Shown in pieces: positions 30,918 to 63,700 of a stretch of DNA of 64,000 nt (its first letter is position 1; each line of letters opens with the position of its first letter). Source of the DNA: Thermoanaerobaculum aquaticum. Lineage in GTDB: Bacteria; Acidobacteriota; UBA4820. The notes under the pieces were generated by a model. It was given only the letters and a program-made list of their open reading frames with translations, ran no database searches and was not told where the DNA came from. Both the position numbers and the translations under genes were made by a program. The stretch spans positions 1,144 to 65,143 of the forward strand of contig DYJZ01000001.1 of the NCBI GenBank assembly GCA_020722885.1, given 5' to 3'.

Positions 30918-30925
30918 TATCAGGA

Positions 30926-31933: not shown

Positions 31934-31936
31934 TTT

Positions 31937-35182: not shown

Positions 35183-35837
35183 TACTTTCCCTTTTCTTTA
35201 TTATTTTTGCGGGAACTCCAGCCACAACGCAGTTGTCTTCTATATCATTTATGACTACAGAGCCAGCTCCAACTATCACATTTTTACCAATCTTTATTCC
35301 CTGTATGATGGATGCTCCTGTTCCTATATGACTGAGTCCGCCAATTTTAACATTGCCAGAAACTGTTACCCCAGGAGCAATATGAACACTCTCCCCCACC
35401 TGACAATCGTGTTCAACGATAGCCCCGCTGTTTATTATGGTATTAATTCCAATTTTAGCACCAGCATTAACAATCGCCCCAACAAGTATCTGGCAACCAT
35501 CGTCTAAAGTTACCTGAGACGAAATCAAGGCAGTAGGGTCAACAACCGTAAATGGTTTTAGCCCCATTTCAATTCCTGAAATAAAAATTTTATGCCTCAA
35601 GGTACAGTCTCCAGTTGTACCTATTCCATTAATAAAATATTTTACACCCTTTTTGATAAGGTCTGGAACTATTCCATCTCCTCCTTTAACCTTAATCCCC
35701 CAAAAAAACCTATTCCACAGCTCGCTGTTTTTTTCAATGAAACAGTCTATCTCATACTCTTCATTTTTCTGTCTGTTAAACGATTCAAGAACAACCTTGC
35801 TATGTCCACCACAGCCAAAAATAGCAATTTTTTTCAA
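35175..35837 (-). CDS. NeuD/PglD/LegH-family sugar N-acetyltransferase (N-terminal Rossmann-like domain + left-handed beta-helix)
   Basis: MKKIAIFGCGGHSKVV N-domain followed by hexapeptide repeats. Confidence 0.7.
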   Translation of the reverse strand: MKKIAIFGCGGHSKVVLESFNRQKNEEYEIDCFIEKNSELWNRFFWGIKVKGGDGIVPDLIKKGVKYFINGIGTTGDCTLRHKIFISGIEMGLKPFTVVDPTALISSQVTLDDGCQILVGAIVNAGAKIGINTIINSGAIVEHDCQVGESVHIAPGVTVSGNVKIGGLSHIGTGASIIQGIKIGKNVIVGAGSVVINDIEDNCVVAGVPAKIIKKRESNE

Positions 35838-37036
35838 ATAATTTTATCTCCTTTTAAATCATAAAAGGCTTTTTGGGTTTTTATCCCTTTCTCCAGTCTT
35901 GACTCGATGAACTTCACAATAATTTTTGCTGCATTACCATCACCATATATGTTTTTGCAATTTTTTAACTTCTCTTTGAACTCAGAGGATGTCGCGAAAT
36001 TAACTGAATCCACTATTTGCTGTTCTCCAAAGTCACAATCAATAACATTTGTATTTCTAACTCTTCCCTCCTGTCTTTTCCCTATATTTATAGCAGGAAG
36101 TTTGAATGAGGCTGATTCTATTATTCCGCTCGATGAGTTCCCGATTACTGCCTCAGCAAGAGACATCAAACTAAAATAATTCTGCGTTCCAAGATTTTCA
36201 AAAAATATTAAATTTTTATTACTTTTAACTTCGCTCAGTATAACTTCCCTGATTTCACTGTTTCCTGGATCAGCGTTGGGCAGGGTTACAATTAATTGGA
36301 CATCAAATTCCCTTAGTGCTTTAAACATAGTTTGTGCGTTTTTTCTGTTATCTACTTTTCCTACAGTTTCCGGATGAAGCGTAACCAGAAAAAACCTCTT
36401 TTTTAAATTTATATTTAACTTTTTTTCAATCTCACTTTTAGAAAGAATTTTTATTTCTTTCAGGTTATCTAAAGAAGGTGCACCTGATATTATTACATTT
36501 TCAGGGTTCTCTCCAAGCTGTATTACTCTATTTCTGTACTCTCCTGTTGAAACAAAATGAAGATGCGAAAGTTTTGTAATCGAATGCCTTAAAGAATCAT
36601 CAATTGCTCCATAAGTCAATTCTCCACCGTGAATATGTGCAACCGGAATATTAAAAGGAAGAGCAGCAAGAGCAGCTGCGTGCATTTCAAACCTGTCACC
36701 TAAAACAAAAAGAAGGTCAATTTTCCTTCTTGAAAAAACTTCCGCAAAAAAATTTAACGCCAGTGCCATTGATTTGACCGTAGATGAGGGACTATCCGCT
36801 GCTAAAAGGATTTCACCTTTTTCCATAATTTTAAATTTTTCTTTCTCTATTTCTCTGATAGTTAAACCATATAGAGCGGATAAATGACTTCCTGTTACAA
36901 TAAAGAAGAACTTTATTTTATTGCTTTTTTTTAGTTCTCTTGCAACAGGAAGATATATTCCAAAATCAGCTCTTGATGTGGTCACAAGTCCTATAGTCTT
37001 CAATCGATCATCTGCCATTTTATTATTGTACCACAT
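35834..37036 (-). CDS. Hydrolysing NDP-HexNAc 2-epimerase (NeuC/LegG-like)
   Basis: About 400 aa of the epimerase_2 family (...IGLVTTSRADFGIYLPV..., ...HIHGGE...), adjacent to the NeuB-like synthase. Confidence 0.75.
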   Translation of the reverse strand: MWYNNKMADDRLKTIGLVTTSRADFGIYLPVARELKKSNKIKFFFIVTGSHLSALYGLTIREIEKEKFKIMEKGEILLAADSPSSTVKSMALALNFFAEVFSRRKIDLLFVLGDRFEMHAAALAALPFNIPVAHIHGGELTYGAIDDSLRHSITKLSHLHFVSTGEYRNRVIQLGENPENVIISGAPSLDNLKEIKILSKSEIEKKLNINLKKRFFLVTLHPETVGKVDNRKNAQTMFKALREFDVQLIVTLPNADPGNSEIREVILSEVKSNKNLIFFENLGTQNYFSLMSLAEAVIGNSSSGIIESASFKLPAINIGKRQEGRVRNTNVIDCDFGEQQIVDSVNFATSSEFKEKLKNCKNIYGDGNAAKIIVKFIESRLEKGIKTQKAFYDLKGDKII

Positions 37037-38046
37037 TTGATATTTATAAGTGCTTTTCTGCCTACAACTTTATCAATATCCGAAGGAGGAATTCCTCCTC
37101 TTGGCCTTTTAGCGGTAACCATCTCTTTAGTTATTTTGTCTCCTTTTTTAATATCTACTTTTGCAACAATTGACTTTCTTGCCTTTTGGAGTATTTCTTT
37201 TTCACACTGTTGTATATTTTTAGAATTTTTTCCGAGCGCTTCTTCCACATCTCTTATCTCTGTAACCATTTTTCTAAATTCTTCGGGCTCGAGAGAACAA
37301 AAATGGTCAGGCCCCGCCATAGACCTGTCGAGTGTGAAATGTTTTTCTATTATTTTTGCCCCGAGCGCCACTGCTGCAACAGGAATATGAATCCCAATTG
37401 AATGGTCTGATAACCCTATTGGAAAATTAAACCTAAACTGCAATTCAGGAATTACCTTCAAATTTATCTGGTTGTAAGGACAGGGATAAGAACTGACACA
37501 GTGAAGTAAAGCAATATTTTTTTCACCCAATTTTTTTACTCTTTTAATCGTGGTGTCAATTTCTTCCATTGTAGACATTCCACAAGATAATATAACAGGC
37601 TTTTTGAACGATACTATTTTTTCGAGAAGCAAAAAGTTGTCAAAGTCTCCCGAGCCAATTTTAAAGGCTGGAACTCCAATTTCATTAAGAAATGAAGCAC
37701 TTTCCTCATCAAAGGGTGTTGACAGAAAAGTAATTTTCCTCTTATCACACCTTTCTTTAATTTTAACAAAATCTTCAAACTTTATTTCGAGAGATTTTAG
37801 CATATTGTACTGGTCTTTGAATTCCCTGCTTCTTTTTTGATAATCGGCTTGAGGAGTACCTTTTAAGACGAGAGAATTTACCTTAAATGTTTGAAATTTA
37901 ACTGCGTCAGCCTTGCTTTCACAGGCTGCATCAACGAGGGCATAAGCCGTTTTCAGACTTCCATTGTGGTTAACACCCGCCTCTGCAATAATATAAGTGC
38001 TGTAATTTGATCCAATTTTTCTATTATCTATCTCTATAACTACCAA
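37000..38046 (-). CDS. Nonulosonic acid synthase (NeuB/LegI/PseI family, with C-terminal SAF domain)
   Basis: N-terminal ...YIIAEAGVNHNGSL...ADAVKFQTF... TIM-barrel signature. C-terminal antifreeze-like domain. Confidence 0.85.
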   Translation of the reverse strand: MVVIEIDNRKIGSNYSTYIIAEAGVNHNGSLKTAYALVDAACESKADAVKFQTFKVNSLVLKGTPQADYQKRSREFKDQYNMLKSLEIKFEDFVKIKERCDKRKITFLSTPFDEESASFLNEIGVPAFKIGSGDFDNFLLLEKIVSFKKPVILSCGMSTMEEIDTTIKRVKKLGEKNIALLHCVSSYPCPYNQINLKVIPELQFRFNFPIGLSDHSIGIHIPVAAVALGAKIIEKHFTLDRSMAGPDHFCSLEPEEFRKMVTEIRDVEEALGKNSKNIQQCEKEILQKARKSIVAKVDIKKGDKITKEMVTAKRPRGGIPPSDIDKVVGRKALINIKCGTIIKWQMID

Positions 38047-38834
38047 ATTGTAAATCCTCCATCAAGGACAATATTCTGTCCGGTCAAATAATCAGACATA
38101 TCACTTACAAGATACATTATAGTTCCTTTAATGTCTTCCTCCCGTGCCATCCTTTTCTGGGGTGTTTTTTTTATGTATCTCTCTACGAATTTAGAATCCT
38201 GATTTCTAAAAACACCTCCGAATGAAATGCAATTAACTCTTATATCAGGCGCCAATTTGGTTGCCAGATACCTCGTTAACTGAATTAAACCAGCTTTGCT
38301 CGCACCGTATGCAGCAGGATTTGCCATACCTGTTCCTTCATAAAGAGAAAAATCAGGTCCAACAATCCCATAAATTGATGAAATAAAAACTATAACTCCT
38401 TTCTTTTCTTTTTGATTATGTTTTGCAAAATCCTGACTCAATATAAATGCTGAAGTCAGATTAACCCTTAAACCTGCCTCAAATGCGTTTTCAGTTTGTT
38501 CTTCAAAGGGAACAGCCCATCCTGAATACTCTGTAGTCCCAACAAAGGCTGCTGAATGAACAAGAATATCAATTTTTTTAAATTTTTCTATCACCTTTGG
38601 AACAATTGTTCTGGTCTCTGCATTCTCCAAAAGGTTTGCCTCTATCGCTATCGACTTGACATTGTACCTTGTTTCAATAAGTTTCTTTAGTGGGTGGATT
38701 TTATTTTCGGAGATATCGTGAATAGCAATATTGCAGCCCTCCTCAGCAAGACTTTCACAAATCGCTCTTCCTATCTTTCCACCACCTCCAACAACAAGAG
38801 CCACCTTTTGATCCAATATTCTTTTTCTTTTCAT
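38040..38834 (-). CDS. Short-chain dehydrogenase/reductase (PtmA-like)
   Basis: VVGGGGKIGRAI Rossmann motif. Catalytic YGASKAG. Confidence 0.75.
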   Translation of the reverse strand: MKRKRILDQKVALVVGGGGKIGRAICESLAEEGCNIAIHDISENKIHPLKKLIETRYNVKSIAIEANLLENAETRTIVPKVIEKFKKIDILVHSAAFVGTTEYSGWAVPFEEQTENAFEAGLRVNLTSAFILSQDFAKHNQKEKKGVIVFISSIYGIVGPDFSLYEGTGMANPAAYGASKAGLIQLTRYLATKLAPDIRVNCISFGGVFRNQDSKFVERYIKKTPQKRMAREEDIKGTIMYLVSDMSDYLTGQNIVLDGGFTIW

Positions 38835-39568
38835 TTTTCAATCCACGGGAAATTTATTATTTTTGCTTCAAGTAAAACCCTCGCCTTCTCAAAATCTTCA
38901 ATATGGTCAATATGGATTGCTCTTATTTCCGGTATTTTAACAACACTATGTTTTCCCTGCTCAATCCAGTTAGATGCTTTTTCCGATAAGAGAAAATCTC
39001 TTCGCCATAAATAAATTGTTGCATTTATTCGATAAACCTGAGGCACTTCCTGCCTTCTTTTATACCTGCTCGCGCCCTCAATTAACGGCTTCATAATACC
39101 ACCTTTTAATATAACGCAATGCCACAGCGGATTAAATTCTGGTTCTGACACACCAATTACGCCATCAAGACTTTCATCATTCTTTAAAATATCTATGGCT
39201 TTTTCTATATCTTCTGGATATCTCCCAGGACTTGTTGGATCAAGCAGGAGAAGTGAATGATATTTATCTCTATAAATTTTTTCACACTCCACAAGTGCGT
39301 GTTGCAAAACAGGGATCATTGCTGCCTTATCGGTAGATAATTCCGCTGGTCTTTTAAAAGGTACATCTGCACCATATTTTCTTGCAACATCAGCAATTCC
39401 CTCATCATCAGTTGAAACAGCAATCCTGTCAATTTTTCCACACATTTTAGCACACATAATCGAATGGGCAATAAGAGGATGGGATAACAAAGGTCTTACA
39501 TTTTTACCTGGAAGCCCTTTCGAACCACCTTTTGCAGGGATCACACACAGCAAAGGATTAACTTCCAT
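38831..39568 (-). CDS. CMP-nonulosonic acid synthetase (acylneuraminate cytidylyltransferase, NeuA/LegF-like)
   Basis: N-terminal ...IPAKGGSKGLPGKN... cytidylyltransferase motif. Confidence 0.8.
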   Translation of the reverse strand: MEVNPLLCVIPAKGGSKGLPGKNVRPLLSHPLIAHSIMCAKMCGKIDRIAVSTDDEGIADVARKYGADVPFKRPAELSTDKAAMIPVLQHALVECEKIYRDKYHSLLLLDPTSPGRYPEDIEKAIDILKNDESLDGVIGVSEPEFNPLWHCVILKGGIMKPLIEGASRYKRRQEVPQVYRINATIYLWRRDFLLSEKASNWIEQGKHSVVKIPEIRAIHIDHIEDFEKARVLLEAKIINFPWIEK

Positions 39569-44862: not shown

Positions 44863-45717
44863 CTATAGTTGCTCGTACTTTCTTACCAAATAAAGGTTTA
44901 TGTCTTTGGCAAAAGGTTTATCACTTATGACAATTATGGAATTAAGAACAAAATAGTTTCTTTGATACATTTGAGTGAATATTTCCATAGTTTTCTGACT
45001 TTGAGTGTACACTTTAACATTCCGGTAATAGCTACAACTATCGTTTGTTCCAATTATCACAATATTATTTTCTCTTTTCTCTGAACTAACAATTAAATCA
45101 AAGGCTCTTGTCCCCTGTGGACAACCAATTAAAAGTGGATAATAAAGACCGAAATTTCCCTCTGCAGGAAGGTCTCCCGCTTTTAGATAAATTAAATTGC
45201 CTGGATATTTATATAGCTCTGTCTCCTGTGGTAGTTTCCGATAAAGAAAAATGGGAGAAATCTTAGGAGATTCAAGCCAGAAAGTCCTCTTACCATTTTT
45301 ATAAATTAAAGGATATGAGAAAGTGGTTAGTTTTCCCTTACTTTTATTTAAGACAAAACTTTCTACCACAGTTGCAGTTTTATCGAAATTCTTTGCGAAA
45401 AGCGAGTATGCAGTGAGTAAATTTAAAGCGCTTTGGGGTTCCTTTTCTATTATTTCACAACCCGCCGTTGCAAGCCGCGTTTTAATTCTTTCATATACGC
45501 CATTCCTGCCACATCGTTTGGATCTCATCATTGCTATTTTAAAACACTCAACAGCCTCATCTACTCTACCCTTTAAAACATACTCTTCAGCCTTTAACAG
45601 TATGTTATAAGCACCATTTGCAAAATCTTGAGGAAAGGGCCTATCGAAATAATTAAAATTTATTATGATGGCAAACAATGAAATAACCACAGTAAAAAAA
45701 GAAAACAATTTCTTCAT
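44863..45717 (-). CDS. Hypothetical membrane-anchored/secreted protein
   Basis: N-terminal hydrophobic anchor MKKLFSFFTVVISLFAIIINF. No recognisable motif. Confidence 0.4.
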   Translation of the reverse strand: MKKLFSFFTVVISLFAIIINFNYFDRPFPQDFANGAYNILLKAEEYVLKGRVDEAVECFKIAMMRSKRCGRNGVYERIKTRLATAGCEIIEKEPQSALNLLTAYSLFAKNFDKTATVVESFVLNKSKGKLTTFSYPLIYKNGKRTFWLESPKISPIFLYRKLPQETELYKYPGNLIYLKAGDLPAEGNFGLYYPLLIGCPQGTRAFDLIVSSEKRENNIVIIGTNDSCSYYRNVKVYTQSQKTMEIFTQMYQRNYFVLNSIIVISDKPFAKDINLYLVRKYEQL

Positions 45718-50162: not shown

Positions 50163-51731
50163 TCACATATAGCCCAAATTTTTGAGCTTCTCCTTTACCT
50201 GCTCTTCATCTATGTTTTGACTGTTTAAATCAATTTTTCTAATACTACCATAATCTTCAAATTTAATTTTTTCTGGTTCTTTCACATACCCAATAAGCGG
50301 TTTACCATCCATCGTTAGCCCAACTGGCAAACCCAGAAGATAGAGAATGGTCGGACAGATATCTACTATTTCTGCCTCCTCAATCTTCTCTTTCTGCTCG
50401 AAAGAATTTCCATACAAAATCAGAAAACCATTTTTTCTATGAGAACCGCTTTTTATAGCACCATATTGAGAGGATACTTTAATTTCTTCATATAAAGACC
50501 AATCAGTTTTGAAGGCGTATCTTCCATCCTCTTCAAGAATCAAATCTGGAGCGTTTTCAAGCCACTCTCCCTTGTAGACTTCCTCTTTCTTCCAGACTTT
50601 TACAAAAGGTCTGTTTTGAGTTTCTTCATCGATATAGTTCATAAATCTCTCTTTAAGCTCATTTGCTATTTCATTTTTTCTTTTCTCATCAAGGATAACA
50701 ACAGACCTGCCAGAAACACTTGTAAAGACAGCACTCGATTTTGTAAAGTCTATAAAACCAAGAGGATTTGCAAGCGGTGAGCTTTTAATATTTTCTCTCA
50801 AAAATTTCCTGATTTTAGGTGGAACAACCGATTTTAAAACTTTTTTTATTGGAGACTTTTTTAAAACATCTTCAGCGTATTCATTAACTTTGAGGTATCC
50901 CCACTTATGAAGAAGTTTGTTTACATACACATCTTTGTAAAGCGGACCAAAACCGTGGTCTGAATAGATTATAAGGTCACAGTCACCAAACTCTTTTAAA
51001 AAATTTTGAATCCCCTTTTCAATTCTCCTGTAATATCTTAAAATTTCATCTTTAAATTTAGTTCCATCGACATATTTTGGATGGCTCTCATCAAAATCGT
51101 GCCAGTAAAAATGCATAACTCTATCAGATTCGTCGTAAATATGCATCATAACTAATGGATTGATTTTTTTCATTAGTTCTACTGATATTTTCTCATCAAT
51201 CTCCGTAATTTCATAAATTTCTTCTAAAAATTTGACTCTGTTTCCTTTTTCAAGATGGAAAGTGCTTGCCCCAAACTTCCCATTTTTTTCTTTTTGAACA
51301 TACTCTTCTACCTCTTCTGGATAAGCATAGGATGCACTCTTTGCTGGGGTAGCCATTCCTGAAACCATAAAGCCGTTTACTTTATCTACAGGATATGAGC
51401 AGGGAACATTGTAAAAACCACATTTTATATTGTGGTAACTCAATATCTCCCATATAGCAGGATATTTTCTGTCCATCGAAGAAAGAAGCCTTAACGATTT
51501 TGAATTTTTGTCAAAAACAAAAAAATCAAAAATATTGTGCTTTCCAGGATTCACTCCTGTAAAAGATGAGGTCCAGGCAGGGGGAGTTAGCGCCGGAACC
51601 GTGCTTTTTAGTTCACCAGAGCAACCCTCTTCCATAAGTTTTTTAAAAAAGGGAAGTTCTCCGCTTAAAGTGAATTTCTTTATTAGATCAGGAGTTCCGC
51701 CATCAATTCCAATAATCAATATCTTTTTCAA
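50163..51731 (-). CDS. Alkaline-phosphatase-superfamily protein (NPP/type-I phosphodiesterase-like, COG3379-like), paralog 1; carries the conserved C-terminal tail ...EEQVKEKLKNLGYM
   Basis: N-terminal metal-site motif ...LIIGIDGGTPDL.... Nucleophile region ...STVPALTPPAWTSSFTGVNPGKHNIFDF.... C-terminal tail motif shared with four other proteins in the module. Confidence 0.7.
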   Translation of the reverse strand: MKKILIIGIDGGTPDLIKKFTLSGELPFFKKLMEEGCSGELKSTVPALTPPAWTSSFTGVNPGKHNIFDFFVFDKNSKSLRLLSSMDRKYPAIWEILSYHNIKCGFYNVPCSYPVDKVNGFMVSGMATPAKSASYAYPEEVEEYVQKEKNGKFGASTFHLEKGNRVKFLEEIYEITEIDEKISVELMKKINPLVMMHIYDESDRVMHFYWHDFDESHPKYVDGTKFKDEILRYYRRIEKGIQNFLKEFGDCDLIIYSDHGFGPLYKDVYVNKLLHKWGYLKVNEYAEDVLKKSPIKKVLKSVVPPKIRKFLRENIKSSPLANPLGFIDFTKSSAVFTSVSGRSVVILDEKRKNEIANELKERFMNYIDEETQNRPFVKVWKKEEVYKGEWLENAPDLILEEDGRYAFKTDWSLYEEIKVSSQYGAIKSGSHRKNGFLILYGNSFEQKEKIEEAEIVDICPTILYLLGLPVGLTMDGKPLIGYVKEPEKIKFEDYGSIRKIDLNSQNIDEEQVKEKLKNLGYM

Positions 51732-53326
51732 GACATATACCCCAAACTTTTAAGTTTCTTTTGAATCTCCTCTCCATCAAAATCAATCCTTTCTCTTTCA
51801 GGCTTCTTCCCTTCGCAAAACTCTATTTTATGTTTTTCAAGATAGGAACTTTCAACTATTCTCTGGAAAACCTTTCCATCAAGATTATCAGGAATTTTTT
51901 GACCAAGAAAATAAAGGATTAAAGGTGCTATATCCAAAACAGAAATTTCACCCTTTTCAATTAACTGAGGAGTAATGTTTCTGCCATAACATAGAAAAAC
52001 ACCAAATAGTGAATGAATTCCTCTATCCACGAGTGCAAAGGGATTTTTCTCCAGCGTCCTTACTGCTGAGGAATAACCCCACTCAGAGTCGCCAAAAATC
52101 AGGTCAGGAGCATATTTTAAAAATTCTCCAGAATAGGTCTCCTCCTTATAAAAAATATCCCTGAAAAGTTTCTCCCCACCAAACTCAAGAGAAAGAAGTA
52201 AATTTTTCAAACTATCTCTTACCTCTTCTATGTCACATTCATCAACAATACCATCTTCAAATCTTAATTTGTCGTTTATGGTAACACCATATGATTCAGA
52301 AGTCATCATCAGCGCTTTTGATTTTAATGGATTTGCTTTGAGAAATAGAGGGTATGGGTATCCAAATTTTCTTAATAATTTAATAAATTTTCCTGCAAAT
52401 GGATTTTTCATTCCCATCTTCAGCCATCTTTCACTCACTTTTTTGAAATCACTTCTGTCAAATAGACCCTTTTCCATTTTGTGGCTTAAAGGTGGAGAAG
52501 GGTTTTCGTAATCTGGCTCCAAAAAACCATTTTGGAAAAGAATTTCATTAAAATGCAATATCCCTTTTGCTTTTTTGAAACCGTGATCGCTTACGATCAT
52601 TAAACAATCATCTTCACCAAGACCTTTTGCTGCAAAATATATCGCTTCGTCAAAAAGCCTGAATATTTCGTATGCTTCCTCTGGAGCAACTCCATCAAAC
52701 ATCTCCCCAAAAAATTCGTGGCTAAGCCAGTCCCCACCCGAGAAAACAATAAAAAAACAGTCCCAATCTTTGTGCCACAAATGCTTCATTGCCTGAAATC
52801 TTATTCTTTCAATTTCGTAAACACCTTTAATGTAGCCTTTTAAATCCCCTTTTCTCAAAAGTGAAGTGTCAGGAAATATCCTGTAGTTCTTAAAAATATC
52901 CACTTCTTCTTTCAAACTTTCTGGAAAAACGCAATTTTCACCCTGCGTTAAAAGTGAGGTAATTGTTATTTCTGATGTAAGGGGGGGATATGTTCCTGGA
53001 AGATTTATTAAAATTGTTTTCTTTCCGTTCCTGCTTAATATTTCATAAAATGTCTCTGTCTGTATGTCCCATGATTGAAGAGGTCTTATTCTTGAAAGCG
53101 AATTTTCCGCTTTGTTAAAATCAAAACAACCGTGTTTTCCAGGATTCACACCTGTTGCCATTGATATCCAAGAAGGTGCCGTAACTGGCGGATATGTTGA
53201 CAGAAGTTTTCCCCTTGCTGAATCTTTATACAAATCATTTAAGCAGGGCATAATATTCTTTTCCATAAGGACCTCAAGAAGATCCCATGTTGCCCCATCA
53301 ATACCCAAAACGACTACTTTTCCCAT
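51728..53326 (-). CDS. Alkaline-phosphatase-superfamily protein (COG3379-like), paralog 2; C-terminal tail ...GEEIQKKLKSLGYMS
   Basis: ...VVLGIDGATWDL..., ...STYPPVTAPSWISMATGVNPGKHGCFDF..., and the conserved tail. Confidence 0.7.
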   Translation of the reverse strand: MGKVVVLGIDGATWDLLEVLMEKNIMPCLNDLYKDSARGKLLSTYPPVTAPSWISMATGVNPGKHGCFDFNKAENSLSRIRPLQSWDIQTETFYEILSRNGKKTILINLPGTYPPLTSEITITSLLTQGENCVFPESLKEEVDIFKNYRIFPDTSLLRKGDLKGYIKGVYEIERIRFQAMKHLWHKDWDCFFIVFSGGDWLSHEFFGEMFDGVAPEEAYEIFRLFDEAIYFAAKGLGEDDCLMIVSDHGFKKAKGILHFNEILFQNGFLEPDYENPSPPLSHKMEKGLFDRSDFKKVSERWLKMGMKNPFAGKFIKLLRKFGYPYPLFLKANPLKSKALMMTSESYGVTINDKLRFEDGIVDECDIEEVRDSLKNLLLSLEFGGEKLFRDIFYKEETYSGEFLKYAPDLIFGDSEWGYSSAVRTLEKNPFALVDRGIHSLFGVFLCYGRNITPQLIEKGEISVLDIAPLILYFLGQKIPDNLDGKVFQRIVESSYLEKHKIEFCEGKKPERERIDFDGEEIQKKLKSLGYMS

Positions 53327-54799
53327 TTATGCCAGTTTAACTTTCTCAATAAGTTTACCAAACAATTCTTTATCCTCTTTTTCCATACCTAAAAAAATTA
53401 TACTAATAACAAACAAAATCAAAGAGACAAGCAATGAAAGTAATGGAACTATGTTGTAAAGCAAGAAGCCTGCAATTAAAGATAAAGATACAGAAAAAAG
53501 AGGCTTTAAAATTGATTTATTCCAGGGTGATATTTTCAATATTATATTAATTTCGATAGATCTTAAAAGATTGACAACAATCAAACTCAAAGCCGACCCG
53601 AGAGCAGCACCTAAGGCTCCATACTCTGGAATTAAAATAACAAGCAAAATAACATTAAAAATGCCCACAAATATCGCATTTACAAGGTTAACTTTTGGAT
53701 GACCTGTCTGCGTAATAAGCGTGCCATTTGTTCCAAAAGCAGCGCTGAATAACTGCCCTGCTGTTAAAACAGATAGCGGCAGTATTCCTTCTTTAAAATC
53801 TTTTCCAAAAAGAGAAAGTATCAATTTTGATCCAAAAATAAGAACTATTGCCGCTATTGATGCAGCAATAAAAATCCACCTTGTTGAGGTCTTGTATAAA
53901 TTTGAAAGTCCCTCCGTGTCACTTTTACCTGTTAACGCAGAATATTGAGGCGCAAGTGATGCCCCAAGAGAATCTGCAGGCATTCCAACACCGAGAGCAA
54001 GCCGTGAAGCAATTGCATAAATTCCAACCTCCTTTGGCTCTCTAAAAAAACCCATTATAAGTATGTCAGACTGAAGTATGAAGAAACTTAAAAAATTTAA
54101 GAAAAGAATTGGAATTGAGAAAGAGAATAATTCTCTGTATCTGTTTTCTTTAAGAGGCGGTAAAGGTGGAATTTTTTGCAGTTCTTTTCTCACCCAAATA
54201 TATGAGAAAAGAAAAACTATTGCCGCTGATAAAACATAGCAAAAAAGAACAAATTCCATTTTCCTTACAAATAGTGCCCCAATAAGTAAAAAGAGAGAAA
54301 AGATTAGAGGATGGGCAATTTTTTCGATAAAGACCCTTTTTCTTATCCTCATAAAGCCCTGAAGAATACTGCTTTTTACATTGTATAATGAGAGAAAAGG
54401 AATTGAAAGACCAAGCCCGATTAACGGCACAACAAGGCTTTCTTTCTTATAAACTTTATTTGCTATAAACGGCGAAATAAGAACAAAAAATGATAAAGAC
54501 AGAATACCAATTATCAATGTTAGTTTTGTTCCATTTTTTATAAACCATAAAGTGGAAGAGTAATTTTCTTTCTCCTTTTCTTTTGCCACAAAGTGAACCA
54601 TTGCCGATGGGAATCCAAAAGAGGTCGCTATTGTAGTTACTGTCACAATGGTATTTGCAAGGGCGTAAATGCCAAAACCTGCGGCTCCAAGAATCCTTGT
54701 CAGGATTATGTTGTTCCCATAGCGAACAAAAGCTCCACCCAGACTGAACAGCCATGCAAAGCCGCCTTCTTTCGCCGCTATTTTGCCTCTATCTGCCAT
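53327..54799 (-). CDS. wzx: Wzx-type polysaccharide flippase (second copy in the window)
   Basis: 490 aa, about 14 TM helices, Polysacc_synt-like. Confidence 0.7.
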   Translation of the reverse strand: MADRGKIAAKEGGFAWLFSLGGAFVRYGNNIILTRILGAAGFGIYALANTIVTVTTIATSFGFPSAMVHFVAKEKEKENYSSTLWFIKNGTKLTLIIGILSLSFFVLISPFIANKVYKKESLVVPLIGLGLSIPFLSLYNVKSSILQGFMRIRKRVFIEKIAHPLIFSLFLLIGALFVRKMEFVLFCYVLSAAIVFLFSYIWVRKELQKIPPLPPLKENRYRELFSFSIPILFLNFLSFFILQSDILIMGFFREPKEVGIYAIASRLALGVGMPADSLGASLAPQYSALTGKSDTEGLSNLYKTSTRWIFIAASIAAIVLIFGSKLILSLFGKDFKEGILPLSVLTAGQLFSAAFGTNGTLITQTGHPKVNLVNAIFVGIFNVILLVILIPEYGALGAALGSALSLIVVNLLRSIEINIILKISPWNKSILKPLFSVSLSLIAGFLLYNIVPLLSLLVSLILFVISIIFLGMEKEDKELFGKLIEKVKLA

Positions 54800-54802
54800 A
54801 TG

Positions 54803-56080
54803 TTATAAATATCCGAGAGATTTAAGTTGTTTTTCAATCTCTTTACTGCTTTTTCCTTCGCTTGAGGGTAAATCAGATTTATAGTTCATTGATTTGAGAA
54901 AATCATCCATTTTCTTTTTCATAGTTTTTTCTAAATCTTTGTCGCAATAAGGCTTCCCGCTCCTTTCAAAAAGATTTTCTTCTTCCAGTTTCATCTGCCA
55001 TTTATTTTCAACATAACCATTTCTTTCAACATAAATAAAATTTTTATCCCTTATAGCCTTCATAAAGTTGTCAACATGTTCTGAAAAGGAAAAATCTCTT
55101 ATTTTGCCTTTCCCGCTTAAAAGTTTTGAAAGATCTATTCCCTGATACCTTTCTTCCTCTATGTTTGCATACCCTGCTATTGTAGGAGCAATGTCAGTAT
55201 GCTCCACAATTTCATTACATTCTTCTCCTCCATATTTATTTTCTGGGAATTTTACAAAAAGCGGGACATTCACTGTTTCATCAAACAATTTCTTATGGGC
55301 ACAGAAAATATTATGGTCTCCAAGAAGACATTCACCATGGTCTGCTGTTAGAAAAATCAAACTTTCTTTATACAAATCCAATTTTTTTAAAATGGAGAAA
55401 AAGACATTCAGTTCGTTATCTATATAACTTATCGCTCCTTTGTAGCATTCAGGGAAAAAAGAAAGGTCAACTTTTTTTTCATATTCTTTAAAATACGGCG
55501 AAAACCAGCCCTTTGAATCTATCTGCTCTTTTACACTATTTTTTGCTCTGGTTTTATTTCCTTTAAAATATTTCTTGGGTGAGTAATAAGGCATATGGGC
55601 ATCAAAAAAATGAAGCCATAAAAACTTATTATCTCCTCTCCCTCTGTCAAGAAGCCATTTTAAGCCTTTCGAAACAACATTTTGAGCCTTTCTTCTTTCG
55701 CCCATTAACTTTTTTATAATTTTTTTTACTCTTGAATTATAAGGGCTAAAAATGTCATCAGTTTCACCAACTTTGTTCCCGAGTTGATTTGCAAGGAATG
55801 AAATTCCGCAAACTGCTTTTGTTTCAAAGTATTTACTTCTCAATCTATTATCCAGTGAAAAATCTGGCAGGGGTACAGAAGTGTAATTTGAATAGACACC
55901 GTGCTGAAATAGATATTGTGATGTAAACATTGTGTAATGGGATGAGAGCGTATTCTGGCTCTGAGAAAAAGCGTTTGAAAAAGAAACCCAATCCTGTTTA
56001 TCCTTAAAAAATTGTGGCATCAAATCAGGATTGAAGTAATCTTTTCTTACACAATCAAGGGTAATTAAAATAACAATCAT
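54803..56080 (-). CDS. Sulfatase-fold (AP-superfamily) hydrolase/transferase lacking the C/S-x-P-x-R formylglycine motif; C-terminal tail ...SKEIEKQLKSLGYL
   Basis: N-terminal ...MIVILITLDCVRKDYF... aligns to the sulfatase metal-binding start, but the formylglycine position reads ...NTLSSHY.... Downstream ...LWLHFFDAHMPY... matches the sulfatase metal ligands. Carries the conserved tail. Confidence 0.65.
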   Translation of the reverse strand: MIVILITLDCVRKDYFNPDLMPQFFKDKQDWVSFSNAFSQSQNTLSSHYTMFTSQYLFQHGVYSNYTSVPLPDFSLDNRLRSKYFETKAVCGISFLANQLGNKVGETDDIFSPYNSRVKKIIKKLMGERRKAQNVVSKGLKWLLDRGRGDNKFLWLHFFDAHMPYYSPKKYFKGNKTRAKNSVKEQIDSKGWFSPYFKEYEKKVDLSFFPECYKGAISYIDNELNVFFSILKKLDLYKESLIFLTADHGECLLGDHNIFCAHKKLFDETVNVPLFVKFPENKYGGEECNEIVEHTDIAPTIAGYANIEEERYQGIDLSKLLSGKGKIRDFSFSEHVDNFMKAIRDKNFIYVERNGYVENKWQMKLEEENLFERSGKPYCDKDLEKTMKKKMDDFLKSMNYKSDLPSSEGKSSKEIEKQLKSLGYL

Positions 56081-57108
56081 TGAATTTTAACCAGATTTTT
56101 GTATTTTCTTTCAATATCCTCGCTGTTTAATCTTGGATAGATTATTCTTAAAGTCCTTGTCCTGTAAAAATTTATATCAACGCATTTCATTGCCTGCACC
56201 TCGTTTCCACAGGCACAGACTGAGTGTGGACAGATTCTGTAATTTAAGGAAAGTTCAGGAAAACCATCTAAAAGATTTCCAATTTTCTCCTTTATAATTC
56301 TTTTTTCAACCATTTTTTTCCCGAAAGATCTGTTAATTTTATAGGCTACCTTCTCAAAAAGAGTCCACTCTGGATATTTGTCAACGCCACATTTATAAAT
56401 ATCTCCCTTATGGTCAATGTAAAAGTAATCTTCACCTGCTCCACAGGCTTTTCCCTTCGGCGAATCTCTTTCAACAAGCATTCTGTAATAATGGTGGGAA
56501 AAGAAAACTTCTTTTAAAAAATTTCTCTCGCTTTGAGTATATGCATCGGGATAGGTCTTCCCGTTATACTCACCATTAAGTTCATTGAGAATAAAGGGAA
56601 CGCCCATATCATCCAATCTTTTCTTGTACTCTTTGATTTTTTCAAACCTATTGGGAATAGCAACATATCCGACATAAATTAAAACTCCCATATCATTTAT
56701 TCTTTTTACCTTTTCAAAAAAATCTTCAATATTATTGATAACGGTATCGTGCAGGGTACAACCCATTCCCAGTTTTTTTAGATTGACTCTTTCAAAAAAA
56801 TCATTCATACAACTCCAGTCCGCCTGAAGATTTGACGAGAATGAAACTCCAAGAATGCTGTCACTTTTGCTCAGCTCAATTACCCCCTGCTGCAGTTCCT
56901 TTGAAAGAAAGAACTCCCCCTCCACACCAATCCTCAAAACTATTTTTTCTTCTGCCTTCTTTAAAACCTCAACGCACCTAAAAAATTTTTGAGAATCGAA
57001 TTCAACCTTTCTCTTCGGCCACTCAGCAATACAGTAAGGGCATTTCAGGTTACATTTTGTAAATCTAACCTGCCATCTGATTTTAACAATCTTCTTTGAG
57101 TCAGTCAT
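56077..57108 (-). CDS. Radical SAM enzyme with a C-terminal SPASM/twitch-like cysteine cluster
   Basis: CNLKCPYC (Cx3Cx2C) at residues 19-26. C-terminal ...GKACGAGEDYFYIDHKGDIYKCG... and ...ICPHSVCACGNEVQAMKC... auxiliary-cluster-like motifs. Confidence 0.7.
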   Translation of the reverse strand: MTDSKKIVKIRWQVRFTKCNLKCPYCIAEWPKRKVEFDSQKFFRCVEVLKKAEEKIVLRIGVEGEFFLSKELQQGVIELSKSDSILGVSFSSNLQADWSCMNDFFERVNLKKLGMGCTLHDTVINNIEDFFEKVKRINDMGVLIYVGYVAIPNRFEKIKEYKKRLDDMGVPFILNELNGEYNGKTYPDAYTQSERNFLKEVFFSHHYYRMLVERDSPKGKACGAGEDYFYIDHKGDIYKCGVDKYPEWTLFEKVAYKINRSFGKKMVEKRIIKEKIGNLLDGFPELSLNYRICPHSVCACGNEVQAMKCVDINFYRTRTLRIIYPRLNSEDIERKYKNLVKIQ

Positions 57109-58393
57109 AGATTTTCTTTAAAATTATAGAGCCAACATCTTCTATGTGAGGTTTTTTTGTAAACTTTTCGTCCGTAATTAAAAATGCATCGTCTCTCGTG
57201 TGCATTCCGGTGAAATGGGTTTTCGCAAAAGGTTCGGTGCTTCTGGGATTTCCCTTTAAATCAAAGCCATAATTTGAGAGAAGAACCATATCAGGTGCGT
57301 TTGAAATGTAGTCTCCCTTATAAATCTCTTCTTTATAGAAAATCTCTCTAATTACTTTTTTCCCGTTTCTTTCGAGAGAGGAAAAAAGTTGCTTTAAATC
57401 CGTTCTGATTTTCTCAACATCATTTTCTTCAACGCTGCCTTTAGGATACTTATCTTTTCGGTGGATGTAAATTCTTGAAGGGTCCATAGCAAAAGCCCTG
57501 CTTTGAGAATCTATTTTGCCAAAATCCGAAGGGGGATCTTCCTCCCATTTTAAAAAGCCATTCTGAACAAGAATCCTGTTTAAATAGACTTCTTCTTCTA
57601 TTTTTGTAAAGCCGTGGTCGCTCATCATTAGAACGGTATCTTTCTCATTTGTTCTGTCAAGTATTTCACCAACAGCCTCATCAACCTTCTTATAAAACTT
57701 CATTGCTGTTTCAAATCTCTCACTCTTTTCATCCACAACAACATCATATTCAAAATGCTGTAAACGGTCAGTATCTGTAATTACACCTATAAAGAGGTCA
57801 CACTGTTCATTCCACAACTCACTGAAAACTTTTCTTCTTTTGTCAAGGGTATCAAAAAGATCATCGTAAAAAAACTTTTTGTCTTTCGCTTTTGTAGTGT
57901 CAACATCAATTTTATAATCCATTTTTTTCAATTTTTCGTAAAGAGTTTGAGGATAAACAGATTTTTTAAGGTCAACAGCAACAAAGCCTGATATCAAAAT
58001 TCCGTTATGCTCTCTTGCTGGATATGTTCCGGGCAGGTTGAGAACTGTGCTCTTCTTACCATTTTCCCCGATTTTATCCCAGATAGTTTTTTCTTTCAAC
58101 GAAAGATAGTTAGGAAAAGTTATCGAATAAGAATTGGGCTTAAGTTCAGTAAAACCGAAAATTCCGTGTCTTGCGGGATTTGTTCCAGTCATAAATGAAG
58201 CCCACGAAACAGATGAAATCTCAGGAAGTGAAGCATCCATCTGCATAAAATTGCCTTTCTGACATAAATTCTTTATATTGGGACAAACTCCTCTTTCAAT
58301 AAGGTTTTTTAAAAGTGAAAAGGGAACTCCGTCAAGTCCAATCATTACAACTCTCTTTTCCCTTTTCTTGAGAATATTCTTAATAAAATTCAT
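57101..58393 (-). CDS. Alkaline-phosphatase-superfamily protein (COG3379-like), paralog 3 (no tail motif)
   Basis: ...VVMIGLDGVPFSLL... and ...SWASFMTGTNPARHGIFGF.... Confidence 0.7.
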   Translation of the reverse strand: MNFIKNILKKREKRVVMIGLDGVPFSLLKNLIERGVCPNIKNLCQKGNFMQMDASLPEISSVSWASFMTGTNPARHGIFGFTELKPNSYSITFPNYLSLKEKTIWDKIGENGKKSTVLNLPGTYPAREHNGILISGFVAVDLKKSVYPQTLYEKLKKMDYKIDVDTTKAKDKKFFYDDLFDTLDKRRKVFSELWNEQCDLFIGVITDTDRLQHFEYDVVVDEKSERFETAMKFYKKVDEAVGEILDRTNEKDTVLMMSDHGFTKIEEEVYLNRILVQNGFLKWEEDPPSDFGKIDSQSRAFAMDPSRIYIHRKDKYPKGSVEENDVEKIRTDLKQLFSSLERNGKKVIREIFYKEEIYKGDYISNAPDMVLLSNYGFDLKGNPRSTEPFAKTHFTGMHTRDDAFLITDEKFTKKPHIEDVGSIILKKIYD

Positions 58394-58395
58394 TT

Positions 58396-59238
58396 TTAGT
58401 TTCCTCTAATCCTTGAAAAGAATTTCTCTGCAACCCAATCGGGAATCCTCATATTTCCTTCACCAATTCCAATGAATATGTTCGGGCGATTGCTTCCGTG
58501 GAAATCGCTTCCACCAGTTACCAGAAGGTCCAATTCCTGTGCTATCTGCAGGAGGTTTTCCTCATCCTCCTTTGTGTGATTTCTGTAAAAACATTCCAAT
58601 CCCTCAAGTCCACTTTCTTTAAGTCTTATTACAACTTCCCTGATTTCACTAAAATTCAATTTTAAAGATAATGGGTGAGCCAGAACGGGAACCCCTCCAC
58701 TTTCGAGTATTATTCTTATTGCTTCTTCTGGTTCAAATCTAAATTTGTCCACATAGCATTGCGCTCCCTTTTTGAGATACCTGTCAAAAGCCTCCTGTGT
58801 GGATGATACATAGCCCTTCTTTAGCATTACCGAGGCAAAATGGGGTCTTCCAACCACCTTTCCCCCTGCTTCTTTTACAACATCTTCATAACATAAATCA
58901 AAACCTGCCTCGTTAAGTTTTTGAACAATTTTGGGGTTTCTTTCCTCTCTCGCTTTTCTTAGAAACTTAAGTTTTTCATTCAGAGTTTTATCTCTGTAGT
59001 CAATGCCATAGCCGAGAATGTGCATTGTTCGGTCTTTAAATTCTGCAGAAACCTCTACGCCTCCCGCGAACTTTAGCCCTCTTTCTCTGGCATAAAGTAG
59101 AGCACTCTCAACCCCATCTATCGTGTCGTGGTCTGTAAGTGAAAGATGTGTTATCCCCTGAGATATTGCATAATCAACGAGGTCTTCCGGGTGAAATGTC
59201 CCATCAGATGCTGTTGAATGAGTATGCAGGTCAATCAT
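58396..59238 (-). CDS. PHP-family metal-dependent phosphoesterase (candidate 3',5'-bisphosphonucleotide/pAp phosphatase)
   Basis: N-terminal [13 protein letters not shown]...[11 protein letters not shown] motifs. Immediately downstream of and overlapping cysC. Confidence 0.7.
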
Positions 59239-59882
59239 CCGAGGTAACCAAGGTCCTTCAATCTTCTGGCAACTTCTTCTTCTTCCTCCTTTGAATAATC
59301 TGAAGAAGGATCGGCTGGGATCAGTTTCATCATCTCAAGAGTTTTGATAATTTTGTTTAAAGATGTTTCCACGCTCTCTTCTCCAGTTTTACAGATAACC
59401 TCAGGATTTAAAGGCGGTTCGTAAGGATCTGATACCCCCGTAAAATTCTTTATCTCACCATTTAGAGCCTTTTTATAAAGTCCTTTCGTATCTCTTTCAA
59501 TCAATTTCTCTAAAGAGCATTCACAATAAACTTCAACAAATTTCGCCCTTTCTTCTACAAATTTTCTCACTTCGTCTCTTATATCTCTGTACGGAGATAT
59601 TGCAGCAGTTATTGCACAAACTCCATTTCTTGAAAGAAGTTTTGCAACATATCCAATTCTTCTTATGTTGGTATCCCTATCTTCTTTTGAAAATCCAAGA
59701 CCTTTTGAAAGATTTGTTCTGACTTCATCTCCGTCAAGAACTTCAACTTTAACGCCTCTTTCAAGAAGTTTTTCTTCAGCAAGTTTTGAAAGTGTTGATT
59801 TTCCTGAACCTGATAACCCTGTAAACCATAAAACGAATCCTTTGTTGTTCATGCTCTCTCCTTTACTCGATAATTTTTCCAA
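59235..59882 (-). CDS. cysC: Adenylylsulfate (APS) kinase; C-terminal tail ...[17 protein letters not shown]
   Basis: P-loop ...[15 protein letters not shown]... and full APS-kinase length, followed by an acidic linker and the conserved tail. Confidence 0.85.
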
Positions 59883-61245
59883 TCATTCCTTCTTCTTTTT
59901 TTATACCGAAAATATTTAGAATGGTGGGAGCAATATCGTATATTGATATGCTCTTCCTCCTTCCTTTGCTAATTCCATTGCCCTTCATTATGAAAAGCCC
60001 GTATTGGGCGTGGTTTGCATCGTCAGGTCCCGTATCATTTTCGAATGTGTGTATCGCTCCTCCACCAACGCTTCCCGCGCTTCTCCAGTTGAGATCTCCA
60101 AAATACACAATCAGATCGGGCGGTATATTTTTTACCTCCCTGTAAACTTCTTCAGGTTTAAATACTTTTGTTCCTATCGGATTTCCATTCTGATCTCCAA
60201 GATTTTCAAGTTTTGATTTTATTTCGTCTCTTACTTTCTCATATTGACTTTTTGGTATTATTCCTGATGGTTCTCTTCCTTCAACATTCATAAAAATTCT
60301 TGAATAGTATCCTCCTTCACCCCAGCAGTATGTCTTATTCCAGTCAATATCTGAAACCCTGAGTTTCTGCTGTTTATCAGGTTCTTCTTTAAGTTTTAAA
60401 AGCCCTTCCCTTCTGAAAAATTCATTTACACATATTGCCCCATGCATTGTTTTAGCACCATGGTCTGAAACTACAAAAATAATGGTATCATCATCAAGAA
60501 TTTTAAGGACAGAACCTATCTCGCTGTCAAGATAAATATAGTAATCTCTTATCGCATACTCAAATTTGTGCCCCTTTTCATAAAGTCTGTGGTTTTTATC
60601 ATGGTATCTCCAGAATGCATGGTGAATTCTATCAACACCCATCTCAACAAAGATAAAGAAATCCCATTCTTTTGACCTAATAAACTCTCTGACAACTTTA
60701 AACCTTCTTCTTGTCATCTCATAAATTTGTTTTAAAAGTTCTTCTTTGTTTTCTGTCCTGAAATCTTTTACATCAATAATGTAATCCCCCCCTGCAGCCA
60801 TATCTATCTCTTTAGCGGCTTCTTCAGGATATGTCCATACCCCATTTTTGTCGGGAGTCAGAAAACAGCCTGCCATTATCCCGTTTATCGGTTTTGGTGG
60901 ATAACTCTGGGGAACGCTTAAAACTATTGACGAGAGACGGTTTCTCGATAAAATCTGGTAGAGTGTTTTCTCTTTTACATAAGCACCGTTAGCAAAATAA
61001 AGCTCCTCGTAGCCGTAAGACTTTCTGTTTCTAAAACCATAAAAACCAAGTTGCCCAGGGTCTTTACTTGTCATCATCGATGTCCAGGCAGGAACCGTTA
61101 TTGGAGGCAGTGTAGATTTCATTTCTCCATAGCAACCTTCGTTCATAAGTGAGCTAAGATTGGGAAGCAGATTTCTCCATTCTCCAAAGACCAGAGATGG
61201 CTCAAAGCAGTCTATTCCAAAAACAAACACCTTCTTCTTTTTCAT
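59863..61245 (-). CDS. Alkaline-phosphatase-superfamily protein (COG3379-like), paralog 4 (no tail motif)
   Basis: ...[12 protein letters not shown]... and ...[28 protein letters not shown].... Confidence 0.7.
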
Positions 61246-61261: not shown

Positions 61262-61294
61262 AAAGGTCATATAAATGGGCTAAAAGTAGCCCAT
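61262..61294 (-). terminator. Candidate intrinsic terminator/attenuator at the 3' end of the RHH gene
   Basis: Perfect 8-bp stem ATGGGCTA-AAAG-TAGCCCAT (61275-61294). On the minus-strand RNA it is followed by a U-rich tract (UUAUAUGACCUUUUUAAAUC), then the start of the next gene. Confidence 0.35.
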
Positions 61295-61495
61295 ACTTTT
61301 CAGCCGCTTTCTTATTGCCTCAATCTCTTTAGCAGAAAGGTTTGAAGTACTTTTGTCGCTTTCCTGATGAGAAACAAGATCTCTTAAAACATAAACGACA
61401 AATTCCGTAACTGAAGAAAAACCACTACCTTCAATTGAAACTTTCAATTTTTCATATAAAGGCTTTGGAATTTTTATTGTAACTTTGTTTTCCAA
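61280..61495 (-). CDS. Small ribbon-helix-helix (CopG/Arc-like) protein carrying the same C-terminal tail ...KEIEAIRKRLKSMGYF
   Basis: 71 aa. N-terminal beta-strand/helix/helix pattern (VTIKIPKPLYEKLKVSIEGSGFSSVTEFVVYVLRDLV), then a Ser/Asp-rich linker and the conserved tail. Sits at the head of the tail-tagged module. Confidence 0.4.
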   Translation of the reverse strand: MENKVTIKIPKPLYEKLKVSIEGSGFSSVTEFVVYVLRDLVSHQESDKSTSNLSAKEIEAIRKRLKSMGYF

Positions 61496-62299: not shown

Positions 62300-63700
62300 T
62301 TAAGCGGCAGTGCCAGAAGGTATGAAGTAAAAGGTCAAGTTAAGAGGCTCACTTTTTTTATAAATCATATAAATAATTTCCTGATCAGGAACTTGTTCTG
62401 TAAGTTCGTTAGTTTGAAACTCTTGCCCTATATTGATGTTTGCAGCTCGTGTGGTAATAATCACCTTATGGTGATTTGTATTTAATTCTGATATAAATTC
62501 TACTATTTTGTCTTTTTCTTCTTTTGGAAAAGTCTCAAAATCATCAACTACCAAAAAAACTTTCTTCCCGTCAATTTGAATAATTTGTTTAGGGTCATCA
62601 CTTTCAGTATTGAAAAGAATTTTGTTTACTCCTTTTATTAAATCTGAAAATGTAGCTATTCGGTCAGTAATTTCTTCTATTTTACCTGTATAATAATCGT
62701 ATTTTCTATCTTTTGCTGATAAAAATATAATGTAGTCAAAAACCTTTTTTTCGTCATTTGCTAAATCTTCACAGAGGCTTTGAATTGTAGCTGTTTTACC
62801 TACTCCTCCATGTCCCCAAACTGTGGCACAAACAAAAGCATTATTTCTAATGAGAAATGTTTTTAATTTTCCCTTAATACCTATATCAATATACTTTCGG
62901 TAGTTGTTTTCGTAAATATTGCGAATTGTACCGTTATGGCTTTTTACTTTTACTCCGTCATTTGTAACGTCTAATTCACACAATTCGTCCCACTCTTTAA
63001 AGTAGATACCTGTGACAAGCAACCTGTTGTACTTTACTTTTCCAAGAAGTTTTTCATCAATACTGTTGAAAAAGTAAAGCTCATTTCCGTAAAAAGTGAT
63101 TTCAATAAAAGGCGATAGCCTAAAATATGTATTAGACTCTGTGCTTGCGTACAAACTGCCTAATTCAAAAGAACCAATCGTTTTTGGACAACTCCAAGGG
63201 GCATAACCTGCCCCGTCACTTTTGTATAAAATGCCTTTATAGGTTGTATTTTCTGTATTAGTTACATATACTAAATCTACGTTGTCTTTAAGGATTGGTA
63301 AATCTTCTGCCAAAACGAAGTCGTAAAGCTCTTGTAATGCTGAAAGTAATTTTTCAGGTGCATCTTCATAAACAAATCCGTGTCCAGGCAATTCATTCCT
63401 AACAGATGGATATTTGTCTAAGGCTTGGCTTAGTTTACTCTTTTTGAAAATTTCTTTTTCTGTGTCAAGTTTTCGGCAAATACCAACTATACTACCAATT
63501 GTAGGTTTTATAACTGACTGAAAAACAAACTCTTTATCTTCGTAATCAAGTTCGTCTAAGTTCTTGTTCCAAAGATAAGCCAACAGGTAAACCAACACAT
63601 ATTCAAACCTTGCTTGAAAGTGCTGGTTTAAGGCGTTTTTGTCGCCCATAGTTTGTAAGAAGTCTATTCGTTGGTCAATCTGTTTTCTGATGTAATCCAT
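62300..63700 (-). CDS. NB-ARC/STAND-type P-loop NTPase with an N-terminal domain of unknown function (candidate defence/signalling NTPase); possibly disrupted, since an in-frame TAA is followed by 57 more plausible codons down to about 62126
   Basis: Walker A GHGGVGKTA. Walker B KVFLVVDDFE. NB-ARC motif HHKVIITTRAANI. The roughly 290-aa N-terminal region has no recognised motif. After TAA the frame continues KVNPLSSSDEYIFYKSVVAFGMIEKASSFEEKLHALNVMINHLEDNPDNMRRKYFSNKEKLKMCGC*. Confidence 0.55.
   Translation of the reverse strand: MDYIRKQIDQRIDFLQTMGDKNALNQHFQARFEYVLVYLLAYLWNKNLDELDYEDKEFVFQSVIKPTIGSIVGICRKLDTEKEIFKKSKLSQALDKYPSVRNELPGHGFVYEDAPEKLLSALQELYDFVLAEDLPILKDNVDLVYVTNTENTTYKGILYKSDGAGYAPWSCPKTIGSFELGSLYASTESNTYFRLSPFIEITFYGNELYFFNSIDEKLLGKVKYNRLLVTGIYFKEWDELCELDVTNDGVKVKSHNGTIRNIYENNYRKYIDIGIKGKLKTFLIRNNAFVCATVWGHGGVGKTATIQSLCEDLANDEKKVFDYIIFLSAKDRKYDYYTGKIEEITDRIATFSDLIKGVNKILFNTESDDPKQIIQIDGKKVFLVVDDFETFPKEEKDKIVEFISELNTNHHKVIITTRAANINIGQEFQTNELTEQVPDQEIIYMIYKKSEPLNLTFYFIPSGTAA

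Follow-up and report, generated by a model that had tools for sequence, protein, structure and literature searches.

A Twitch-type radical SAM enzyme with conserved sulfation-related gene neighbors in a polysaccharide locus of Thermoanaerobaculum aquaticum

We analyzed a 64,000-nucleotide (nt) stretch of DNA from Thermoanaerobaculum aquaticum (assembly GCA_020722885.1, contig DYJZ01000001.1, positions 1,144 to 65,143; the window), focusing on a gene for a radical S-adenosylmethionine (SAM) enzyme, here named rSAM. The window carries a large polysaccharide locus of the Wzx/Wzy type, with Wzc, Wza, and an outer-membrane barrel encoded at 0-4.7 kb; the locus also holds glycosyltransferases (GTs), Wzy, and sugar-nucleotide genes, including those of a NeuB-type nonulosonic acid pathway. 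The rSAM gene belongs to a module at 50-61.5 kb with the order RHH(tail)-AP4-APS kinase(tail)-PHP phosphatase-AP3-rSAM-SULF(tail)-Wzx-AP2(tail)-AP1(tail), in which "tail" marks proteins sharing a C-terminal sequence (Table 1). As a preliminary description of this DNA had stated, rSAM overlaps both neighboring genes: by 8 nt with the upstream AP3 gene (junction ATGACTGA) and by 4 nt (ATGA) with the downstream SULF gene.

Table 1. Features of the rSAM gene and its module (window coordinates)
Feature	Position	Strand	Evidence
rSAM, 343 amino acids (aa), Twitch-type, uncurated sulfation-linked subfamily	56077..57108	-	
CX3CX2C (C19, C23, C26), SAM-binding [4Fe-4S] cluster	57031..57054	-	near-invariant or invariant in 55 sequences
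Twitch auxiliary-cluster region: C222-x13-G-x4-C240 hairpin, then C293-x4-C298-x-C300	56209..56445	-	alignment
C-terminal motif GNExQA..V..Y.RTRTLRI.YP (R316, R318, R321), subfamily-specific	56134..56208	-	alignment, profile search
RHH-like (ribbon-helix-helix) protein, 71 aa, tail-bearing, first module gene	61280..61495	-	
AP4: PF01663, Thr nucleophile, no tail	59863..61245	-	
Adenosine 5'-phosphosulfate (APS) kinase (makes 3'-phosphoadenosine 5'-phosphosulfate, PAPS), tail-bearing	59235..59882	-	NF002059, 268 bits, above cutoff 244
PHP-family 3',5'-nucleoside bisphosphate (pAp) phosphatase-like protein	58396..59238	-	NF041577, 214 bits, below cutoff 400
AP3: PF01663, alkaline-phosphatase (AP) fold, no tail, invariant nucleophile-position Ser (PEISSVSW)	57101..58393	-	
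SULF: PF00884 sulfatase fold, tail-bearing, Thr in place of formylglycine Cys/Ser (QNTLSSH)	54803..56080	-	
Wzx-type flippase inside the module	53327..54799	-	
AP2: PF01663, tail-bearing	51728..53326	-	
AP1: PF01663, tail-bearing	50163..51731	-	

The SAM-cluster motif of rSAM reads CNLKCPYC (residues 19-26). We found 71 homologs, and in an alignment of 55 sequences C23, C26, C222, C240, C293, C298, and C300 were invariant, while C19 was conserved in at least 90%. The Pfam Radical_SAM model matched below threshold (22.9 bits), and the NCBIfam model STM4011 matched with an E-value of 1e-27. The protein has the partial TIM-barrel core with a GGE-type SAM-binding motif, and its AlphaFold2 model reached a predicted local distance difference test score of 94 and a predicted TM-score of 0.91. 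Despite the sub-threshold Pfam score, the identification as a radical SAM enzyme is secure because of the STM4011 match, the conserved cysteines among homologs, and the model.

The preliminary description had also proposed a SPASM- or Twitch-like auxiliary domain, and the cysteine pattern and the homolog alignment bear this out. The first pair of auxiliary cysteines, C222-x13-G-x4-C240, flanks a hairpin (CGAGEDYFYIDHKGDIYKC) and is followed by C293-PHSV-C298-A-C300. At the level of sequence pattern, this corresponds to the Twitch definition of a Cys-flanked beta-hairpin plus at least two downstream cysteines, and the rSAM family profile aligns to the Twitch-domain protein SkfB over residues 9-279. 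A full SPASM domain was taken to have the seven-Cys motif CX9-15GX4C...CX2CX5CX3C...C and two auxiliary clusters. Its first half is present in rSAM; the second half (CX2CX5CX3C...C) is absent, with CX4CXC instead, and the SPASM model TIGR04085 scored 16.9 bits, below its cutoff of 27. Only five cysteines are conserved outside the SAM motif, as C310 varies. Since the hairpin pair and CX4CXC are present without the second SPASM half, one auxiliary cluster and one surplus Cys are expected.

To place the family, we ran a hidden Markov model search against 1.84 billion cluster representatives, which returned 197 rSAM-related clusters at E < 1e-30 and 1751 at E < 1e-10. The best NCBIfam model for rSAM and five orthologs was STM4011 (NF038073; E 1e-21 to 1e-27), with 97.2 bits for rSAM and 74-87 bits for the orthologs. 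These scores (74-97 bits) lie below the family cutoff of 200, and no curated family covers the group. The C-terminal ~45 residues (GNExQA..Y.RTRTLRI.YPK) are matched by the closest members only; distant STM4011-like relatives lack the RTRTLR motif, and their matches stop at profile position ~280-295. Some of these distant proteins (P0075, P0077, P0084, P0109, and P0195) have 1100-1500 aa and two to four fused radical SAM domains, including B12-binding/B12-dependent and SPASM types, and tandem duplications of ~600 aa also occur in the wider family (e.g., P0070 and P0076).

To gather related loci, we looked up exact protein matches and scanned GTDB genomes and JGI metagenomes; dereplicating these at an rSAM identity of 90% left 13 loci of clade A (Acidobacteriota; rSAM at least 45% identical to the window protein) and 29 of clade B (~37-45% identity; Desulfobacterota, Syntrophia/Smithella, Methylobacter, Omnitrophota, Bacteroidales, and Planctomycetota/Brocadia). 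The Acidobacteriota loci keep the window gene order, together with APS kinase and the pAp phosphatase. AP3 always lies directly upstream of rSAM and SULF directly downstream, and this order and the tails were found in each of the 11 informative loci of clade A, none of which has a canonical sulfotransferase. In clade B, a PF00685 and/or PF13469 sulfotransferase was detected with Pfam within 3 kb of rSAM in 15 of 24 informative loci; it usually adjoins rSAM, often as two genes. Three further loci carry AP or sulfatase-fold genes. The other neighbors of rSAM are GTs, Wzx, or Wzm/Wzt with a Wzt_C domain. The clades also differ in the protein itself: a two-helix insertion of ~30 aa between the hairpin and CX4CXC (residues ~243-275, window 56280-56380) is present in clade A and missing from clade B, and the AP-fold partners might dock there. 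Two clade B loci, L004 (6498-8348) and L057 (12377-14287), encode a sulfatase-family protein of ~620-640 aa in place of the sulfotransferase, and L057 additionally carries an MBOAT gene and a second, SPASM-type radical SAM gene.

The link to glycan assembly extends to gene fusions. On the complete Smithellaceae chromosome OY821638, the rSAM ortholog is the C-terminal domain of a 1152-aa open reading frame (ORF; L026, 7505-10963) with GT2 (166-292), GT4 (619-755), and rSAM (841-1152) domains, followed by two sulfotransferase genes. Two relatives at greater distance, P0158 and P0205, have the domain arrangement GT2-GT2-GT4-rSAM. A different extension, of ~200 aa with the sequences GLGKSGTT and RDPRD, was seen at the C terminus of P0061. 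Considered as a sulfotransferase, it was not matched by neighboring sulfotransferases in phmmer; hhalign aligned the 5'-phosphosulfate-binding (PSB) loop alone (probability 46%), and Pfam Sulfotransfer_1 gave an E-value of 0.047 over the RDPRD region. There is thus a weak hint that the extension is sulfotransferase-like, and a 133-aa ORF downstream suggests that a frameshift rather than a true fusion is possible.

Taken across both clades, the conserved partner of rSAM is sulfuryl-transfer machinery in glycan assembly, not the tail or a particular AP-fold protein. This weakens two readings in which rSAM would modify a protein. The first, raised in the preliminary description, is a modification of the shared tail in the manner of MftC or of maturases of ribosomally synthesized and posttranslationally modified peptides (RiPPs). 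Tail-bearing proteins do co-occur with rSAM in all informative clade A loci, and the peptide maturase SkfB has the same Twitch CX4CXC pattern (PMC6231123). However, 22 of the 24 informative clade B loci lack tails; tail-bearing ORFs occur in the other two, and rSAM keeps its cluster cysteines and C-terminal motif throughout. The tail consensus is ..LKxLGY[LMF], and Tyr was the last residue in no tail examined, whereas MftC decarboxylates a C-terminal Tyr. The MftC model TIGR03962 did not match rSAM, and P0066 reached no more than 22.8 bits, where the cutoff is 265. An N-terminal RiPP recognition element (RRE) is precluded because CX3CX2C starts at residue 19, leaving 18 residues before it, and the AlphaFold2 model has no extra N-terminal domain; a PqqD/MftB-like gene is also missing.

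The distribution of the tail points in the same direction. The 71-aa ORF, which has a weak ribbon-helix-helix match (RHH_1, E 0.014) and opens the module in no fewer than 11 loci of clade A, ends in ..EIEAIRKRLKSMGYF, the tail common to APS kinase and the AP-fold enzymes. That a DNA-binding protein and enzymes bear the same tail suggests an interaction or localization motif and not a substrate. Moreover, the Acidobacteria metagenome-assembled genome BP9.bin43 contains what looks like a natural deletion variant (L033, 8829-10289). Here, rSAM is cut to ~38 recognizable N-terminal residues in a 105-aa ORF, SULF is missing, and an unrelated 238-aa ORF is inserted. The RHH, AP4, APS kinase, PHP, AP3, Wzx, and AP2 genes are all intact, and RHH, APS kinase, and AP2 retain their tails despite the truncation of rSAM. 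We therefore consider modification of the tail very improbable.

In the second protein-directed reading, rSAM would act like an anaerobic sulfatase-maturating enzyme (anSME), oxidizing the AP3 Ser or the SULF Thr nucleophile to an aldehyde or ketone; the oxidized residue would give the AP-fold enzymes sulfatase- or sulfotransferase-type chemistry. In clade A such a role keeps some probability, as the AP3 Ser is invariant and AP3 always precedes rSAM there. The neighbors, however, lack C/S-x-P/A-x-R: at the corresponding positions SULF reads T-L-S-S-H, which is kept in its orthologs, and AP3 reads S-S-V-S-W. The five auxiliary cysteines compare with two auxiliary clusters in anSME, and no anSME model matched at E <= 0.01. 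In the 15 clade B loci with a P-loop sulfotransferase partner, there is no AP-fold gene nearby. Some rSAM orthologs are fused to GTs, and AP3 persists in L033 without an intact rSAM. An anSME role, which had already been judged unlikely on the basis of the missing sulfatase motif, remains quite unlikely.

If clade B pairs rSAM with P-loop sulfotransferases, the question arises what transfers sulfate in clade A. With Pfam and with unfiltered profiles derived from the sulfotransferases of clade B, no canonical sulfotransferase was detected in the window or across seven loci of clade A (L001, L003, L009, L013, L016, L017, and L033). A 284-aa ORF without a Pfam match (44863-45717) was considered as a hidden sulfotransferase and rejected, as its N terminus contains a hydrophobic segment and a PSB loop is lacking. 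Judged from sequence, the module operon makes PAPS, because its APS kinase scores above the curated cutoff, and it probably removes pAp via the PHP phosphatase-like protein. The four PF01663 proteins and the Thr-type SULF may be AP-fold sulfotransferases, since they are placed where clade B has sulfotransferases. In the absence of a canonical enzyme, the sulfating partners in the window are probably these AP-fold and sulfatase-fold proteins, which the APS kinase of the operon would supply.

We propose that rSAM is a sugar- or glycan-directed tailoring enzyme working together with sulfation, with a probability of roughly 0.55. A sulfated polysaccharide is the most likely target, rather than protein tails, because across many bacterial phyla enzymes that sulfate or link sugars are encoded next to rSAM or fused to it. 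Radical sugar modification had been the second option of the preliminary description. It is favored by the adjacent sulfotransferases, the fusions of the GT2-GT4-rSAM type, and the finding that BlsE is structurally closest; orthology to a characterized sugar-modifying radical SAM enzyme was not found. The substrate would most likely be a sugar residue in the lipid-linked repeat unit of the glycan in the cytoplasm, or in the immediate precursor of that unit, and rSAM would be a constant companion of the sulfating enzymes of this glycan. The SAM cluster would generate a 5'-deoxyadenosyl radical that takes a hydrogen from a sugar carbon, and the substrate radical would be resolved by the auxiliary cluster or by the one surplus conserved Cys.

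A soluble small molecule was considered as an alternative substrate, either a nucleoside diphosphate (NDP) sugar before transfer, as for BlsE and DesII, or a nucleotide related to the sulfur donor. The structural neighbors of rSAM include BlsE, DesII, viperin, and MoaA, which all have nucleotide or nucleotide-sugar substrates, and the Arg-rich C-terminal motif could bind diphosphate or sulfate. But rSAM is fused to polymerizing GT domains, its gene lies with those that act late (flippase, sulfotransferases) rather than with the NDP-sugar genes, and nothing ties it to PAPS chemistry. A soluble substrate is thus unlikely, and the fusions and gene placement favor a late step.

For the reaction itself, analogies offer several candidates. 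Late-stage epimerization with the fifth Cys as hydrogen-atom donor is the leading, though tentative, candidate; a Cys serves as such a donor in the epimerizations by NeoN, HygY, and EpeE. Oxidation to a keto sugar, as by BtrN, is unlikely, and so is a BlsE-like decarboxylation or a sulfate-assisted deoxygenation. UDP-sugar dehydrogenase genes, sought as support for a uronate substrate, were found in no other related locus, and a uronate-specific reaction is therefore without support. A broader proposal combines an undescribed radical reaction tied to sulfation, for example late-stage epimerization of a residue that is later sulfated or radical elimination with sulfate as leaving group, with PAPS-dependent sulfation by AP- and sulfatase-fold enzymes (Thr/Ser nucleophile) replacing P-loop sulfotransferases in Acidobacteriota. 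We regard this combination as speculative and on balance doubtful.

Outside the module, the window encodes another Wzx-like flippase together with a complete nonulosonic-acid pathway (29493-39568, minus strand) with NeuB, a cytidylyltransferase, a 2-epimerase, a PglD-like acetyltransferase, an aminotransferase, and a dehydratase. NeuB is also encoded in several loci of distant STM4011-like enzymes (L037, L039, L046, and L054). Immediately upstream of the polysaccharide locus is a gene for a STAND/NB-ARC-type NTPase with a truncated C-terminal region (62300-63700, minus strand).

Bacterial sulfated polysaccharides are poorly understood. To our knowledge and in the literature searched, their biosynthesis includes no known radical SAM step; the searches returned nothing on a pairing of radical SAM enzymes and sulfotransferases in polysaccharide, exopolysaccharide, O-antigen, or other glycan synthesis, and nothing relevant on STM4011/4012/4013 or on the rSAM family. 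The subfamily described here has a new, consistent genomic association with sulfuryl-transfer enzymes and GTs. Its occurrence alongside sulfotransferases in at least six phyla, sometimes fused to GTs, points to a missing, probably new glycan-tailoring reaction. The Acidobacteriota version suggests AP-fold enzymes in place of canonical sulfotransferases, which, if true, would be a new fold class for sulfuryl transfer; both together would then constitute a new kind of sulfated-polysaccharide machinery. The Smithellaceae set of a GT2-GT4-rSAM fusion and two sulfotransferases is a compact system suited for heterologous reconstitution.

Among known systems, the nearest structure is that of the cytosylglucuronate decarboxylase BlsE (PDB 7vob; PMC3715490), which shares 14% identity with rSAM (sequence-profile E-value 0.21). 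BlsE belongs to a nucleoside-antibiotic pathway, whereas rSAM has no conserved link to uronic-acid genes. The Twitch sactisynthase SkfB (PDB 6efn; PMC6231123) acts on a peptide and has a ~100-residue RRE at its N terminus; in contrast, rSAM has 18 residues ahead of CX3CX2C and lacks a precursor peptide gene. The anSME enzyme (PDB 4k36) combines a full SPASM domain and two auxiliary clusters with a C/S-x-P/A-x-R target, and rSAM has neither feature. The likewise uncharacterized STM4011 family (NF038073) resembles rSAM in the core and the Twitch hairpin, which the match covers. The window subfamily differs from it by the additional C-terminal RTRTLR motif and by its sulfation-centered genomic context.
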